Assembly: GCF_001564455.1 (NCBI RefSeq)
Contig: NZ_CP011391.1
Location: 1,770,001-1,802,000 of the forward strand
Direction: 5' to 3'
DNA from: Faecalibaculum rodentium
GTDB lineage: Bacteria > Bacillota_I > Bacilli_A > Erysipelotrichales > Erysipelotrichaceae
Length of the DNA stretch: 32,000 bases
Positions 10,933 to 14,933 of this stretch are shown here, piece by piece. The position numbers and the translations under genes are program-made. Below the pieces are notes generated by a model that did not search any database, was not told the origin of the DNA, and was given only the letters and a program-made list of their open reading frames with translations. Position 1 is the first letter of the stretch. Every line of letters starts with the position of its first letter.

Positions 10933-10959
10933 CGGGCTGAAGGCGTCTGATCAGGAAAG

Positions 10960-10997
10960 GAACACCGCTTGTAGTGAAGAATGCGGTGTTCTTTTTA
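10960..10997 (+). terminator. Rho-independent terminator of the hxlAB-cupin operon
   Basis: GAACACCGC, a 14-nt loop, GCGGTGTTC, then TTTTTAT. Confidence 0.7.
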
Positions 10998-11045
10998 TGC
11001 TGTCACGGGACAGGATGCCGATGGTGGAAGGGCGAGATGGGGTGG

Positions 11046-12152
11046 TTATGCGTTGATTAGGCAGATAAATTTTGATTTGTCTATTTCCTTCTTCTCTATA
11101 GAAAATAGTTTTTGCTTCTCTAGTGGAGGAATAAATATAGTTAGATTTTTATATTTCTCAACATTAAAGTGCTTTTGTGCTGCACCCCCACTTCCCTTAC
11201 TGATCTGTTTTAACCCATGCGGAAAATTCGTATATGCACATAAATAAGTAGGGTCTATCTGGGTCAAATCAGGTTCAACTATGAGCACATCAATTGCATT
11301 GCTACCAGCATACTCTTTGGTTACAACAGCAGCCGTTCCTGGTGCTCCTGATCTTACTACGACGACATCATTTTCTTTAACCTCTGTCTTTTTATTGGAC
11401 TTAGCACCATCTTCTGTGAAGTACACCCAATTCGTATCATTGATGCAAAAAGGTGAAATGTTTAAACCACGAATCGCTTTATATCGTGTTGGGGAAGAAG
11501 AATAGAAACGTGTAGGCTTGATTACAAGGCCTACTTTTACTTTTGCAATACTTTCAACATTTGCGATTGGCCACTCCATTGAATTGTTAGTATCGCCGAA
11601 CATCTCAATAAATCGGGACTGGACTAATTGCTGTAAAGATTGTAATTGTATATTTTTAGCTTCTAAGAGATTGGCTAATAAGTCTAAGCGCTTTACAATT
11701 CTCTTTTGCAATTCATATGGTGGCAACTCAATCGAAAGTGAAGTGAGAGTTTTTTTGTTAAGTGTCACCCCCATAACTGCCTTATTTCCGTATTTCTCCC
11801 AATTTTGGGATAAACACCAATAGTATAAGTAAGAAGGATCAACTTTCTCACTTTTCTTATCTACAAATGCGATAATCGCTTCATTTGTGTACATATTATG
11901 TGTTGTGATAGATACTTTACCTAATGATAGCTTAAAACTCATTACTACAGTATCCTTAGGAATCATCTGTATCTTGGACTTGTCTATAGCCTGTTCGGTA
12001 ATTCTTTCCTTACTACAACTAATATATTTTCCTGAACTACTCAAATCTGATACAGAAAGCCACACGTTAGTCCCATTCCAGTAGTTAGGATTGCTACGAG
12101 AGGGTGTTTTTCCCATCTTCAACTCAAAAAGATCTGTAATCTTATACTTCAT
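11046..12152 (-). CDS. hsdS: Type I restriction specificity subunit HsdS (two TRDs, C-terminal conserved helix truncated)
   Basis: The parts are an N-terminus MKYKITDLFELKMGKTPS, a central conserved region LQQLVQSRFIEMFGD, a second TRD, and IPPLEKQKLF...DKSKF. The protein then ends early (ICLINA*) exactly where the sequence becomes GC-rich. I prefer the ATG at 12152, with AGAGAGG 7 nt upstream. Confidence 0.75.
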   Translation of the reverse strand: MKYKITDLFELKMGKTPSRSNPNYWNGTNVWLSVSDLSSSGKYISCSKERITEQAIDKSKIQMIPKDTVVMSFKLSLGKVSITTHNMYTNEAIIAFVDKKSEKVDPSYLYYWCLSQNWEKYGNKAVMGVTLNKKTLTSLSIELPPYELQKRIVKRLDLLANLLEAKNIQLQSLQQLVQSRFIEMFGDTNNSMEWPIANVESIAKVKVGLVIKPTRFYSSSPTRYKAIRGLNISPFCINDTNWVYFTEDGAKSNKKTEVKENDVVVVRSGAPGTAAVVTKEYAGSNAIDVLIVEPDLTQIDPTYLCAYTNFPHGLKQISKGSGGAAQKHFNVEKYKNLTIFIPPLEKQKLFSIEKKEIDKSKFICLINA

Positions 12153-12168
12153 TAACAAACCTCTCTTC

Positions 12169-12702
12169 TTATCGGGACTGGACAAGTTCATCCAATAGAA
12201 CGAGCAATTGTTTTTCGTTCTCTAGTAATAGTTGCATCAAACTTAGTCTATTAAGTCGTTTAGATTGATCACCTAAACTAGGTATATCGAGTGTAAAAGT
12301 ACCCAATTGATCCTTGGGAACGACTCTGCGACGAGCGGTTGTCCCCCGCAGTTTCTCTTTTATAAAAGTTAAAGCACGAGGGCCATGTAGATATGCTTCT
12401 AAATAGTTTGGATCAATAATGCTCTTTTTAACATCGCACACATCATAAGCAGGGCTCAAGATACCCTCATCCACAATCTTTTGGGAGTACATAACTCCTT
12501 CATCCATAGGAAATCCAAAGACAAATTGCCCTCTCCGCACAACTTTATAATTTGATCGATCTTTGGATGCAATATCCTTTTTAAACCTGTTATTCTGGAG
12601 CATGATTCCATTTTTGGAAGTCATTGATAGAACGGGTAAGTCTAAATCTCTAGCCCGCTTTACTTTTGCATAGCTGATTAAATCACCCAATTCATGCCAC
12701 AT
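12169..12702 (-). CDS. Single-TRD HsdS fragment (probable silent or decayed specificity cassette)
   Basis: 177-aa ORF with one TRD and a conserved region (LGDQSKRLNRL...LLDELVQSR). It stops exactly where SRF-x-E-x-F should continue. A degenerate conserved-region remnant and two in-frame TAG codons lie upstream at 12703-12783. Confidence 0.6.
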   Translation of the reverse strand: MWHELGDLISYAKVKRARDLDLPVLSMTSKNGIMLQNNRFKKDIASKDRSNYKVVRRGQFVFGFPMDEGVMYSQKIVDEGILSPAYDVCDVKKSIIDPNYLEAYLHGPRALTFIKEKLRGTTARRRVVPKDQLGTFTLDIPSLGDQSKRLNRLSLMQLLLENEKQLLVLLDELVQSR

Positions 12703-12797
12703 AGCTATACCTCTGTATAAACATGAGAACTATTTCTTCTATCCACTGCTTAAAACACTTCCAAACACCATATCGGGATTTGAATCTATCAGAGTTT

Positions 12798-13793
12798 CTA
12801 TGAAATATATTTCTGGTGGCTGATCTTCACATTGTTCTGGTTCACCATTGCGTACTGCATGGTGGTATCTATTTTGGTATGACCTAATAATTGCTGAACC
12901 TGTTCAACAGGCATCCCTTTATCAATGGCTCTGGTTGCCAGTGTTCTCCTGAATTTGTGCGGATGTACTTTCTTGATTCCCAGCTTTCTTCCCAGTTCCC
13001 GCAGCCGTATTTCCACTCCACTGATGGCCAATCGGTTGTGGGGATTGAGAAGAGACACAAAAAGTGCTGGATTCGCATCATTTCTTGAATCTAGATAGTT
13101 TTTCAAATGGATCTTGGTTCTTGCATCAAAATAAACCGGTCGTTCTTTGCTTCCTTTGCCAAAAACAATACATTCCCGATTATCGAAATCAATATCCTCA
13201 ATATTCAGCTTGACCAGCTCTCCCACCCGCATACCTGTGGATGCCAGAAGATCTATCATTGCCAGATCCCGAATATTTGATGCGTTGTCCCTTAGTATTT
13301 CCAGGTTTTCATCTGAATACGTTTCTTTTACTGTCTTTGGGGTTTTGATTTTATGAATTCTTCGAACTGGACTCTTTAAAATGTAGCTCTCGTCTTCAAG
13401 CCAGGAAAAGAAGGTGGACATAATTCGCCGAATGTTATCGATGTTGGACTTGCTGCAATTATTGATAGTCTGATAATCGGATAAATACTGTCTTAAGTCT
13501 TCCGTTGTAATGTGAGTAACGGAGATATCAAGAACAGAAAGCATTTTTCGAATGGTGGCCTTGTAGTATTTCAAGGTTTTGGCGCTGCATCCTTCTATAC
13601 TCTTGGCGGTGATAAATAGATCTAAGTAATCTTCATTTGACTTCTTGTCAGCATCACTTATTTGCGATTCTGATTCTTTTACATCCACACGGTAAAAACA
13701 ATGATTCAAAACCTTCTGCAATTGCTGGAGCTGGTAATTATTCAAAACAGGAAGCATTTCACGGGTGATATCTGCAATCAGTTGCTGTTTCAT
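12798..13793 (-). CDS. Tyrosine site-specific recombinase (XerC/D-like integrase)
   Basis: There is an N-terminal SAM-like core-binding domain (TLKYYKATIRKML...ITTEDLRQYL). Catalytic motifs are GMRVGEL (R), HPHKFRRT (H-x-x-R) and LGHTKIDTTMQY (H...Y). GAAGGAG lies 5 nt before the ATG. Confidence 0.9.
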   Translation of the reverse strand: MKQQLIADITREMLPVLNNYQLQQLQKVLNHCFYRVDVKESESQISDADKKSNEDYLDLFITAKSIEGCSAKTLKYYKATIRKMLSVLDISVTHITTEDLRQYLSDYQTINNCSKSNIDNIRRIMSTFFSWLEDESYILKSPVRRIHKIKTPKTVKETYSDENLEILRDNASNIRDLAMIDLLASTGMRVGELVKLNIEDIDFDNRECIVFGKGSKERPVYFDARTKIHLKNYLDSRNDANPALFVSLLNPHNRLAISGVEIRLRELGRKLGIKKVHPHKFRRTLATRAIDKGMPVEQVQQLLGHTKIDTTMQYAMVNQNNVKISHQKYIS

Positions 13794-13837
13794 GGGATCT
13801 CCTTCAGAACAATCTGGTTCCTTCTAAATATCCCCAA

Positions 13838-13874
13838 TCGTAAAACAGCATTGTCTCAACCAACAATGCTGTTC
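13838..13874 (-). terminator. Hairpin or weak terminator ending the hsdRMS-accessory transcription unit
   Basis: The minus strand reads AACAGCATTGT, an 8-nt loop, ACAATGCTGTT, then TTACGATT. The stem is a perfect 11 bp but the T-tract is short. Confidence 0.4.
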
Positions 13875-13888
13875 TTGTATACCTGCAT

Positions 13889-14296
13889 TCAGGACATTTC
13901 TTTAAAGCGCTCTACAGCCATTTCCGGATCCAGTGCATGGAAACCGATCCAGCTGGTATTCATGGTTTCAGCATCTGCCTGATGGTAAATGTTTCTGCTG
14001 GATTCTCCTGTCAGATAATGCCAGTAACGATACAAATATCCAGTCCAGTACATCATTTCCTGGTCATATAGAGGCCCATTTCTCTTGAAACCACCAGCTT
14101 CATCACCCAGCTCATCCAGCAGATATTCCTCTCCCATCCATTGCAGCCGGTCATATGTATCATCCAGATGCGATGCCACGGAACTGGTCATAAACGTTCT
14201 GATGAATTCCTGAGAATCGAAACCGGCTTTCACTGAATTTTCAAACAGCCGGCCTTGAATATCACACAGCTGTCTCTGATCCAGACTCAAATCCAT
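13889..14296 (-). CDS. Hypothetical small acidic/aromatic protein, partner of the DUF3990-like gene (possibly DUF3791-like N-terminal half)
   Basis: GGAGGA lies 5 nt before the ATG at 14296 (MDLSLDQRQL...), and the start lies 35 nt inside the upstream gene. The motif LQWMGEEYLLDEL resembles my recollection of DUF3791. The C-terminal half is aromatic-rich (YWTGYLYRYWHY). Its function is unknown. Confidence 0.55.
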   Translation of the reverse strand: MDLSLDQRQLCDIQGRLFENSVKAGFDSQEFIRTFMTSSVASHLDDTYDRLQWMGEEYLLDELGDEAGGFKRNGPLYDQEMMYWTGYLYRYWHYLTGESSRNIYHQADAETMNTSWIGFHALDPEMAVERFKEMS

Positions 14297-14933
14297 TCCA
14301 TTCCTCCACGATTTCATCAAAGTATCTGCCTTCCCGACGATACTTTCTGGCTACTTTTTCCACGAGTTCGATTCCTGCTTTTCTGTTTTTAAAACTCAGT
14401 TCTTTCAAAGCTTCGCATTCAGGTCCATCAATGTATCTTTCTTCAACCACTGATATTTGCGAACACGCCTTTTCTGAAACTGCAACATACTGTTCTCCAA
14501 GTTCCAGCCCCATCAGCGAGTGAATCAGAGCAGCATCCGTAATATCCCCTTGGAAGAAGCGGTCAAGTACAACAAACATCCGGTCATTGGCGATCAGCCC
14601 TTTGATAACATCATACCCACTGACATAGGATTGAATCGCATTATACAGGGGCAGATCCTTATATTTTTCTAGTTTGCCCCTGTAATACGCGATTACTAAT
14701 GCCCAGGTCAAATCTGCCCCCAGTTCCAGCACTCTCAAGTCAGATAAATCCAGCTCAACAGTGTATAGAACTGGACTTTCTTCATTGTGAATCAGTGTTA
14801 GTGGCTGCCAGACGACTGTACCCATGTAGAAACCGGTACCAAAATCGCATTTGTCTCTGCTGATTGGTGCTATGGGACCATTTAAGCCACTACGAGATCC
14901 GTGAAAAAGTCTGATTTTCTCCCCTTTACTCAT
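14262..14933 (-). CDS. DUF3990-like protein with PARP-type H-Y-E (ADP-ribosyltransferase-like) signature
   Basis: The motifs LFHGSRSG, FGTGFYMGT, LYTVELD and YDVIKGLIANDRMF fit the DUF3990 pattern as I recall it (LYHGS / FGKGFY / D-I-V-x-G-P-I-A-D-D). The ATG overlaps the hsdS stop (ATGA at 14930-14933), with AGGAG 8 nt upstream. Confidence 0.65.
   Translation of the reverse strand: MSKGEKIRLFHGSRSGLNGPIAPISRDKCDFGTGFYMGTVVWQPLTLIHNEESPVLYTVELDLSDLRVLELGADLTWALVIAYYRGKLEKYKDLPLYNAIQSYVSGYDVIKGLIANDRMFVVLDRFFQGDITDAALIHSLMGLELGEQYVAVSEKACSQISVVEERYIDGPECEALKELSFKNRKAGIELVEKVARKYRREGRYFDEIVEEWNGFESGSETAV

Follow-up and report, generated by a model that had tools for sequence, protein, structure and literature searches.

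The presence of several hsdS modules on one strand around a tyrosine recombinase gene in Faecalibaculum rodentium raises the question of whether these modules are exchanged to alter the specificity of a Type I restriction-modification (R-M) system and, if so, whether this occurs by inversion, by excision and reintegration, or no longer at all. The modules lie in a 32,000-nucleotide stretch of the chromosome (contig NZ_CP011391.1 of RefSeq assembly GCF_001564455.1, positions 1,770,001 to 1,802,000), hereafter the window, whose own numbering is used throughout. The original prediction for this stretch described an array of hsdS cassettes behind the recombinase with junctions broken at the heptamer TCCCGAT, and proposed site-specific exchange within the central conserved region of hsdS, either by a deletion/integration-type cassette system or in a decayed shufflon, rather than an inversion switch. 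Comparison of the locus across public assemblies and related genomes leads us to the conclusion, to which we assign a probability of about 80%, that this is a phase-variable Type I R-M locus whose specificity is changed by shuffling of target recognition domain (TRD) cassettes between direct sites and not by inversion.

The gene layout was found as described, with a complete Type I system (hsdR, hsdM, and hsdS), several TRD segments, and the recombinase gene between two TRD groups. Read along the minus strand, the order is hsdR - hsdM - T1a - [slot 1] - tailA - DUF3990 gene - small open reading frame (ORF) - hairpin - recombinase - [slot 2] - tailD, where T1 cassettes are of the N-terminal type and T2 cassettes of the C-terminal type. 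All cassettes and tails are on the minus strand. T1a (15551..16027) is the fixed N-terminal TRD cassette directly after hsdM and is unmoved in every assembly. The slot-1 full hsdS in the window (14930..16027, 365 amino acids) consists of T1a, the mobile C-terminal cassette T2a (15013..15543), and tailA (14930..14999), a fixed 3' end encoding the last 22 amino acids of the distal conserved helix. Slot 2 holds the mobile N-terminal-type cassettes T1b (12178..12771) and T1c (11619..12170), followed by the mobile C-terminal cassette T2c (11081..11611) and a fixed short 3' end, tailD (11046..11067), which ends in ICLINA-stop and is 16 amino acids shorter than tailA. T1b comprises a degenerate-linker leader, its own ribosome-binding site, and a 177-amino acid TRD ORF (12169..12702, ATG at 12702), while T1c opens with a stop codon, after which come a ribosome-binding site and the likely ATG (12152) of the distal hsdS (11046..12152, 368 amino acids). 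The tyrosine recombinase (12798..13793, minus strand, 331 amino acids) matched the Pfam families Phage_integrase and SAM_4 and scored above the cut-off for NCBIfam NF040815, and its catalytic residues are intact (motifs GMRVGE, GKGSKER, HKFRRT, LGHT, and MQY).

Cassette exchange at two classes of direct site

The four predicted copies of the heptamer were all found, as plus-strand ATCGGGA (TCCCGAT when read on the coding strand) at 15544, 12772, 12171, and 11612, and are termed site X. X(a) (15544..15550) is in the central conserved region of the expressed hsdS, X(b) (12772..12778) is in noncoding DNA 19 nt past the recombinase stop, where it forms the entry to slot 2, X(c) (12171..12177) closes T1b, and X(d) (11612..11618) falls within the distal hsdS, again in the central conserved region. 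A 12-mer, TCAAATCCCGAT, is common to X(a) and X(b), and a 13-mer, GTCCAGTCCCGAT, to X(c) and X(d). The readings beyond the sites likewise agreed with the earlier description. Past X(a) and X(d) the reading is S-R-F-x-E-x-F. Past X(b), a frameshifted M-V-F-G-S remnant gives way to two in-frame TAG codons, after which come a ribosome-binding site and the start (ATG) of the 177-amino acid ORF. X(c) is succeeded by a TAA stop, beyond which an AGAGAGG ribosome-binding site precedes the distal hsdS ATG. TCCCGAT was not enriched across the whole window (7 observed versus 5.6 expected), and as the heptamer count is not significant alone, proof was needed from other evidence. Because X(b) lies in noncoding DNA, protein conservation cannot explain this copy.

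A repeat search also identified a second direct repeat, absent from the original prediction. This site Y is a 13-nt sequence, ACAAATCAAAATT, in the distal conserved region, with one copy in slot 1 (Y(a), 15000..15012) and a second in slot 2 (Y(d), 11068..11080), both supported by the junctions of T2 swaps. X(a) and both Y copies read CAAAT-N4-ATT (CAAATC-NNN-ATT) and differ in their centres, which are CCCG in X and CAAA in Y. Site X is on the left of every cassette and site Y on the right of each T2 cassette, and all copies (4/4 X and 2/2 Y) are in the same, minus-strand orientation. No credible inverted repeats linking the hsdS modules were found; inverted matches within the locus are short, imperfect, and chance-like. 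Longer recombinase-binding arms were also sought from symmetry around the cores, and the symmetry was weak beyond CAAAT / ATTT, so no claim is made for such arms.

Variant contigs were found by exact look-up of the recombinase protein in public assemblies, and these contigs share the same chromosomal flanks and differ in the number and size of their hsdS genes. Arrangements were thus compared between samples. Each junction was divided into a left half, namely La (end of the first TRD), Lb (past the recombinase stop), Lc (end of the 177-amino acid module), or Ld (end of the first TRD of the distal hsdS), and a right half, Ra, Rb, Rc, or Rd, which are the entries into the four following modules. 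Five clear cassette orders and one duplicated form were observed, always with T1a first. With T2a in slot 1, slot 2 holds either T1b, T1c, T2c (the window and L228) or T1c, T1b, T2c (L227 and L229). With T2c alone in slot 2, slot 1 holds either T1b, T1c, T2a (L002) or T1c, T1b, T2a (L003). In a fifth order, slot 1 holds T1c, T1b, T2c and slot 2 holds T2a (L004-L007). The sixth form, which is possibly chimeric, has T1b, T1c, T2c in slot 1 and again in slot 2 (L001). Overall, T2a was found in slot 2 in L004-L009 and T2c in slot 1 in L001 and L004-L008.

Each junction consists of an exact left half, TCCCGAT, and an exact right half, such that the flanks are reassorted precisely at the heptamer. 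The predicted exchange at TCCCGAT is therefore supported by natural variants that have exchanged cassettes between slots at this position. Of 16 left-right combinations, 13 were observed: La was joined to Ra, Rb, or Rc in different samples, Lb to Ra, Rb, Rc, or Rd, Lc to Ra, Rc, or Rd, and Ld to Ra, Rb, or Rd. Two of the three missing combinations, Lc-Rb and Ld-Rc, are possible solely on a circle or a tandem copy. Slot swaps of T2a and T2c cross over within the 13-nt Y identity and leave both 3' tails unmoved. No inverted cassette was present in more than 25 assemblies of the locus. The differing centres of X and Y, together with the absence of X-Y hybrids among the junctions, suggest that X and Y are two mutually incompatible site classes that pair only as X-X and Y-Y; given such incompatibility, N-type and C-type cassettes would never fall out of order. 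Two contigs have unusual structures. In L001, a 1.7-kb T1b-T1c-T2c set is present in both slots and T2a is absent, and in L009 (1-2900), the path from the 3' end of the recombinase gene leads via X and T2a into tailA-DUF3990, as an excised circle would be expected to read.

Placed beside a T2 cassette, T1b yields a full 381-amino acid hsdS (L003 and L004), so that the 177-amino acid fragment, which had no Pfam match, is a complete, self-starting N-terminal-type cassette. T1b and T1c bring their own stop, ribosome-binding site, and ATG, and a full slot-1 hsdS is therefore made by whichever T1 adjoins T2; five of the six possible T1/T2 pairs were found in slot 1. Pairwise identity among the five TRDs (T1a, T1b, T1c, T2a, and T2c) is 18–31%, and such mutually divergent domains should therefore specify different half-sites. 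Proteins of other F. rodentium strains (P0215 and P0194) show a third C-terminal TRD type, in which T1b is fused to a TRD starting EIKERVPLSYF..., as well as a short tail of variant sequence, KSKFIRPINA, so that cassette repertoires vary by strain, as they do at the pneumococcal tvr locus. A homologue search with the 365-amino acid HsdS for chimeric HsdS proteins returned only full-length relatives at 52–57% identity and two partial ones at 78–88%.

Several of these differences separate near-identical strains. Contigs L228 and L229, from two runs of one study, are 100% identical across 10,124 bp, with no single nucleotide polymorphisms (SNPs), except for the order of T1b and T1c. Between L003 and L006, 10.6 kb of flank contains 2 SNPs, and T2a and T2c are exchanged; L005, from a lineage ~2.5% diverged, shares the L006 arrangement. 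As near-identical strains have different arrangements, the system is active, and the suggestion of a decayed shufflon does not hold. The precise deletion derivatives expected of a deletion/integration system, the form favored in the original prediction over inversion, also exist. In these collapsed loci, hsdR-hsdM-hsdS is followed directly by the chromosomal flank, without cargo, recombinase, or spare cassettes, and HsdS is a 349-amino acid protein (T1a+T2a+tailD). Relative to full-length loci, the flanks of the collapsed loci have 0/4832 and 0/4000 mismatches in one lineage and 0/4832 and 1/4000 in the other. With collapse in two lineages and near-exact flanks in both, the same precise deletion must have occurred at least twice.

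Proposed excision and reintegration, and competing explanations

With no inverted repeats and all sites direct, recombination can only delete or integrate a circle. In the proposed mechanism, recombination between two direct sites of the same class would excise a circle, and re-entry at another site of that class would relocate the cassettes. From the window state, recombination of X(a) with X(b) would excise a 2,772-bp circle carrying T2a, tailA, the DUF3990 gene, the small ORF, and the recombinase gene, and re-entry of this circle at X(d) would give the L002 state. If T1b were excised and put back one X site further along, the L003 state would result, and excision at X with re-entry through Y would exchange T2a and T2c to give the L004 state. 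As derived from the junctions, a single excision followed by a single reintegration, each at X or Y, would lead to each arrangement from one of the others. With T1 adjoining T2 in slot 1 to make a full hsdS, 3 x 2 = 6 HsdS proteins would be possible. Predicted circles are 559–601 bp for a single T1 cassette and 2.8–3.9 kb for segments with the recombinase and the DUF3990 pair. The T1b circle would measure 601 bp and have the Lc-Rb junction, ATGAACTTGTCCAGTCCCGATATGGTGTTT, and the T1c circle 559 bp with the Ld-Rc junction, AGCAATTAGTCCAGTCCCGATAAGAAGAGA; the 2,772-bp circle would have the Lb-Ra junction, and recombination between the two Y copies would yield a circle of 3,932 bp. A metagenome scan for circle junctions with an unspecific 15-nt pattern, TWGTCCAGTCCCGAT, gave, among the matches listed, none with F. 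rodentium context.

We infer a circular intermediate, catalysis by the encoded recombinase, and a resulting change in methylation target. The circle is suggested by the precise collapsed loci in two lineages together with the ambiguous path of L009, and dependence on the recombinase is suggested by the 7- and 13-nt crossover cores and by the fact that the sites are constantly found with recombinases of this family. Tyrosine recombinase sites typically have a short overlap region, which fits crossovers within 7 nt (X) or 13 nt (Y).

Relatives of the recombinase at 63–78% identity occur in many gut Firmicutes, and in Treponema and Selenomonas as well. The informative relatives are the 52 loci in which hsdS genes flank the recombinase gene on either side. 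If every hsdS was on the recombinase strand, the locus was counted as all-direct (34/52); the other 18/52 include inverted copies. The all-direct relatives carry the same two types of direct repeat. Their X-type repeat, (TC)AAAT-Cnnnn-TTTrTsGAGATGTT, is in the central region and has its downstream copy ~20 nt past the recombinase stop, and their Y-type repeat, GACAAAT-nnnn-A(TTT), is in the distal region; a short core common to the X and Y classes, as at the F. rodentium locus, was present in 27 related loci. The 5-nt X centre takes five forms across loci (CCCGA, CCCGG, CACGG, CGAGA, and CGCAA), and in 27 of 27 loci it does not vary among the copies of a locus, compared to a permutation mean of 7.7 and maximum of 16 (0/10,000 permutations reached 27). 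Y centres likewise match within a locus. Loci with inverted hsdS, whose recombinases are 63–69% identical, have instead another repeat, (G)ATAAACAATAATTTAG, which is partly palindromic and occurs in both orientations (L042, L046, L048, L051, L052, L060, L061, L066, L068, L070, L071, L074, L077, L082, L084, L085, and L087). One recombinase family thus seems, from these loci, to serve both inversion-type and excision-type systems.

These observations bear on several other explanations of the locus. Were the downstream hsdS genes the remnant of a separate, decayed R-M locus or of a dead shufflon, the short identities would reflect protein-level conservation; the lack of heptamer enrichment and of a Pfam match for the 177-amino acid ORF are compatible with that view, and the conserved L-V-K/Q-S-R-F sequence gives nucleotide similarity in any case (a 33-nt repeat at 70–79% identity). 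Conservation of protein sequence would not account for a copy of X in noncoding DNA, for reassortment precisely at the heptamer, or for matching centres in all 27 relatives, and the 177-amino acid cassette makes a 381-amino acid hsdS elsewhere. Above all, cassettes relocate between slots among otherwise near-identical strains, and decay is therefore refuted by this arrangement polymorphism, to the extent that we consider it very improbable. Inversion switching of the kind known from ivr/SpnD39III and Mycoplasma hsd, caught here in an all-direct state, would be in keeping with the inverted-hsdS loci of the more distant relatives. Those relatives, however, use another repeat, ATAAACAATAATTTAG; moreover, inversion between intragenic sites cannot make inverted copies direct, inverted matches within the F. 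rodentium locus are chance-like, and no opposite-strand cassette occurs in the more than 25 assemblies, making this the explanation in which we place least credence.

Assembly artefacts, either chimeric joins at repeats or mixed strains, could account for L001 and L009, which are hard to explain as single molecules. As an account of the variants at large they are scarcely credible, because assemblers need overlaps much longer than 7–13 nt and cannot make such joins, the same junctions recur in independent samples from several sources (ENA, Logan, NCBI, and JGI) with differing contig-naming styles, and the window arrangement matches a 2.54-Mb contig that is apparently a complete genome. A further possibility is that the rearrangements are real and arose from general recombination, such as RecA-dependent or illegitimate exchange, gene conversion, or horizontal transfer, rather than from the encoded recombinase acting via circles. 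Horizontal exchange at the locus is indeed indicated by the contrast between a cassette-recombinase block that is ~0.15% diverged and flanks that differ by 1.4–3%, with hsdM at 7.9%. RecA needs far more identity than the 7 or 13 nt to which exchange is limited here. In addition, the same cores were used in all 13 of the observed junction types and in two independent deletions, and the inverted-arm sites with locus-specific centres, always accompanied by this recombinase family, show the overlap pattern of a tyrosine recombinase. We therefore regard general recombination as unlikely, even though excision at the tail-end repeats of pneumococcal tvr persisted without the recombinase TvrR (PMC6265443).

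That last observation, that some excision at the long repeats of tvr occurred in the absence of TvrR (PMC6265443), also counts against cassette shuffling by a dedicated recombinase, and several other points weigh on the same side. The likeness of the locus to tvr is one of architecture, and the recombinase may or may not be an ortholog of TvrR. The evidence for rearrangement comes from assemblies compared between samples, and the differences could in principle be rare, old events, although the SNP-free pair L228 and L229 speaks against this. The pair T1a+T2c was absent from the assemblies of the locus. L001 and L009 may be assembly chimeras of mixed arrangements, or a true duplication and a circle, and the slot-2 genes with the short tailD may be either functional or silent.

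Cargo genes, hairpins, and the genomic island

The excisable segment also carries two small genes on the minus strand between slot 1 and the recombinase gene. One (14262..14933) encodes a 223-amino acid DUF3990 protein (Pfam PF13151, E 8.5e-26), which is a candidate toxin. DUF3990 belongs to the Pfam ADP-ribosyltransferase (ART) clan (PMC7955679), and a DUF3990 domain forms the toxin end of an Rhs effector (PMC4524185). The other is a small partner ORF (13889..14296) that encodes 135 amino acids as called in other assemblies, reaches 14320 as an ORF, and overlaps the DUF3990 gene. It had a weak match to DUF3791 (E 0.025, below the cut-off), and its product is possibly an antitoxin or a regulator; by BLASTP, it was not similar to the ORF that accompanies the DUF3990 gene of L015. 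Among relatives, the position from slot 1 to the recombinase gene is occupied by Fic/DOC proteins (with a helix-turn-helix (HTH) domain in L011), DUF3990 pairs, a Polbeta nucleotidyltransferase with NTase_sub_bind, RelA_SpoT, or an AAA_21 ATPase (L011, L015, L016, L023, L046, L058, and L080). These cargo classes are all typical of toxin-antitoxin or abortive-infection systems. Since cargo varies at the same position among relatives, the slot is conserved and its content is not.

Between the cargo and the recombinase gene is an attenuator-like 14-bp hairpin ending in UUUU (13842..13875, minus strand), and the RNA fold of 13790-13895 has an energy of -34.3 kcal/mol (z -3.9). A scan for terminators and promoters gave counts not above shuffled controls and missed this hairpin, which was found by folding. 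By analogy, the DUF3990 pair and the hairpin may have a stabilizing or regulating role like that of a toxin-antitoxin system. Most relatives have a 10–14-bp hairpin that takes in the ribosome-binding site and the start codon of the recombinase gene, in the region ~100 nt upstream of the ATG (L012, L015-L017, L021-L023, L027, L030, L033, L034, L050, L062, L065, L069, L075, L076, L079, and others); the corresponding structure in the window, at 13790-13835, is weaker. The stems vary by locus yet stay complementary, as in ATGTTGGTACAC...GTGTACCAACATG versus ATTACAATCT...AGATTGTAATG, and the start-codon hairpin looks like a conserved translational brake on the recombinase.

The whole R-M island spans ~10 kb (10951..20986), as assessed from a composition profile and from the flanks of empty-site contigs. 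Its GC content is 37–50%, compared to ~59% for the surrounding chromosome. The empty-site contigs L091-L099 align with the window up to 10950 and again from 20987, so that the cupin and CpXC genes are direct neighbors, which is the state of most F. rodentium contigs; the protein of a neighboring SIS gene is indexed in 2546 blocks of public assemblies, versus 187 for the recombinase. The island stands in place of ~256 bp of intergenic DNA between the cupin and CpXC genes, and no target duplication was obvious at its boundaries. The minus strand carries every gene of the island, namely hsdR, hsdM, hsdS, the DUF3990 gene, the small ORF, the recombinase gene, the 177-amino acid TRD ORF, and the second hsdS. 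The hsdR gene (17573..20866) encodes 1097 amino acids with matches to ResIII, HSDR_N, and EcoEI_R_C; these domains are preceded by an N-terminal DUF4145 at residues 23-110 (E 4e-4, below the Pfam cut-off). The hsdM gene (16020..17546) encodes 508 amino acids with matches to N6_Mtase and HsdM_N. The boundary of the island just past slot 2 has an inverted repeat of 13 bp, AAAGGAACACCGC / GCGGTGTTCTTTT (10956-10995), which is probably a terminator, and a similar hairpin is present at the empty site.

Divergence between L005 and L006 is uneven along the island, being 7.9% in hsdM (locus 5001-6500; window ~16100-17600), 0.64% in hsdR, and ~0.15% in the cassettes, cargo, and recombinase gene, with chromosomal flanks at 1.4% upstream and ~3% downstream. 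This pattern suggests mosaic horizontal exchange inside the island and a recently shared cassette-recombinase block. A more speculative proposal, which we hold to be doubtful, is that the block of cassettes, cargo, and recombinase is a semi-autonomous mobile element that inserts at X of resident hsdS genes and spreads between strains and species. Interchangeable toxin-antitoxin-type cargo would then guard the excised circle, the site centres would act as a compatibility code, and recombinase output would be controlled by a new toxin-antitoxin pair made up of DUF3990 and its DUF3791-like partner. Hints in this direction are the low divergence of the block (~0.15%) against that of the flanks (1.4–3%) and hsdM (7.9%), the identical recombinase and DUF3990 proteins labelled 'MULTISPECIES' by NCBI within Erysipelotrichaceae, and the variation among relatives both in cargo and in the side of the locus on which hsdR is located.

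Relation to known recombination systems

Switching of Type I specificity by excision and reintegration has so far been demonstrated only in pneumococcus (PMC6265443), and the same logic is now found in a mouse-gut commensal. Our literature search returned no paper on this F. rodentium locus and no experimental study of excision-reintegration outside pneumococcus. The mechanism thus has precedent, and what is new is nucleotide-level evidence from natural variants, together with rules for the sites and the finding that the direct form is prevalent among relatives. The exchange points were placed to the nucleotide using public assemblies alone, and the direct-repeat layout is the majority form among close recombinase relatives in many gut Firmicutes. 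The rules that emerge are testable: two site classes with shared arms and incompatible centres, covariation of centres within a locus, and a cargo slot that is conserved and holds toxin-like genes. Metagenome assemblies are broken by such loci, which can also vary the methylome and the susceptibility to phages and plasmids within a strain; this bears on strain tracking and on the genetics of gut anaerobes.

The R64 shufflon, in which the tyrosine recombinase Rci acts on short sites with a 7-bp core to permute segments encoding alternative protein ends, differs in that it operates by inversion only, between inverted sfx sites, and varies the C-terminus of a pilus adhesin without excision and reinsertion of cassettes. 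In engineered cassette exchange with heterospecific lox or FRT sites, the sites share arms and have incompatible centres, and orientation is kept. The exchange of T2a and T2c between X and Y resembles this design as a functional analogy and not through family membership, the lox/FRT system being artificial. The inversion-type systems, or 'epigenetic invertons', including ivr/SpnD39III, Mycoplasma pulmonis hsd, and those of Bacteroides fragilis and others (PMC7672463), likewise place hsdS TRD modules beside a site-specific recombinase, have crossovers in hsdS conserved regions, and produce alternative HsdS proteins. Those systems have inverted repeats, silent hsdS genes on the opposite strand, and switching by a single inversion, whereas the F. 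rodentium modules and sites are all direct. Huang et al. (2020) noted that a small share of loci with multiple hsdS genes may use excision-reintegration, and left the TvrR clade (clade 2) out of further analysis, its configurations being too complex (PMC7672463).

The closest counterpart is the tvr/SpnIV locus of S. pneumoniae, for which recombinase-mediated excision-reintegration through circles was shown experimentally (Kwun et al. 2018, PMC6265443). In tvr, the direct repeats fall into two classes, a midpoint repeat of ~18 bp and a tail-end repeat of ~70 bp, with an ~11-bp core in common, and Phd-Doc homologues and an attenuator upstream of the recombinase gene restrain its expression (PMC6265443). 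The two loci differ in gene order, as hsdR-hsdM is upstream and slot 2 ends the operon in F. rodentium, whereas hsdR follows the second slot in tvr. They also differ in cassette number, with five in F. rodentium (three N-type and two C-type) versus typically three or four in tvr, and in repeat length, with a 7-nt core in 12–13-nt matches and a 13-nt distal site in place of ~18 and ~70 bp. Their cargo, an accessory feature rather than part of the mechanism, consists of a DUF3990 (ART clan) gene and a weakly DUF3791-like ORF in F. rodentium and of the Phd-Doc homologues (tvrAT) in pneumococcus, and the host here is an Erysipelotrichaceae member of the mouse gut. Shared by both are TRD segments that flank an internal tyrosine recombinase gene, repeats that are all direct, midpoint and tail-end repeat classes with a common short core, a fixed first segment after hsdM with others moving between slots, adjacent N-type and C-type segments that make a full hsdS, a shortened locus via excision, and a position immediately before the recombinase gene that is occupied by small cargo genes and a hairpin. 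Every tvr-type architectural feature that was tested was thus found in F. rodentium, and as judged from its architecture this locus is a further tvr-type locus.

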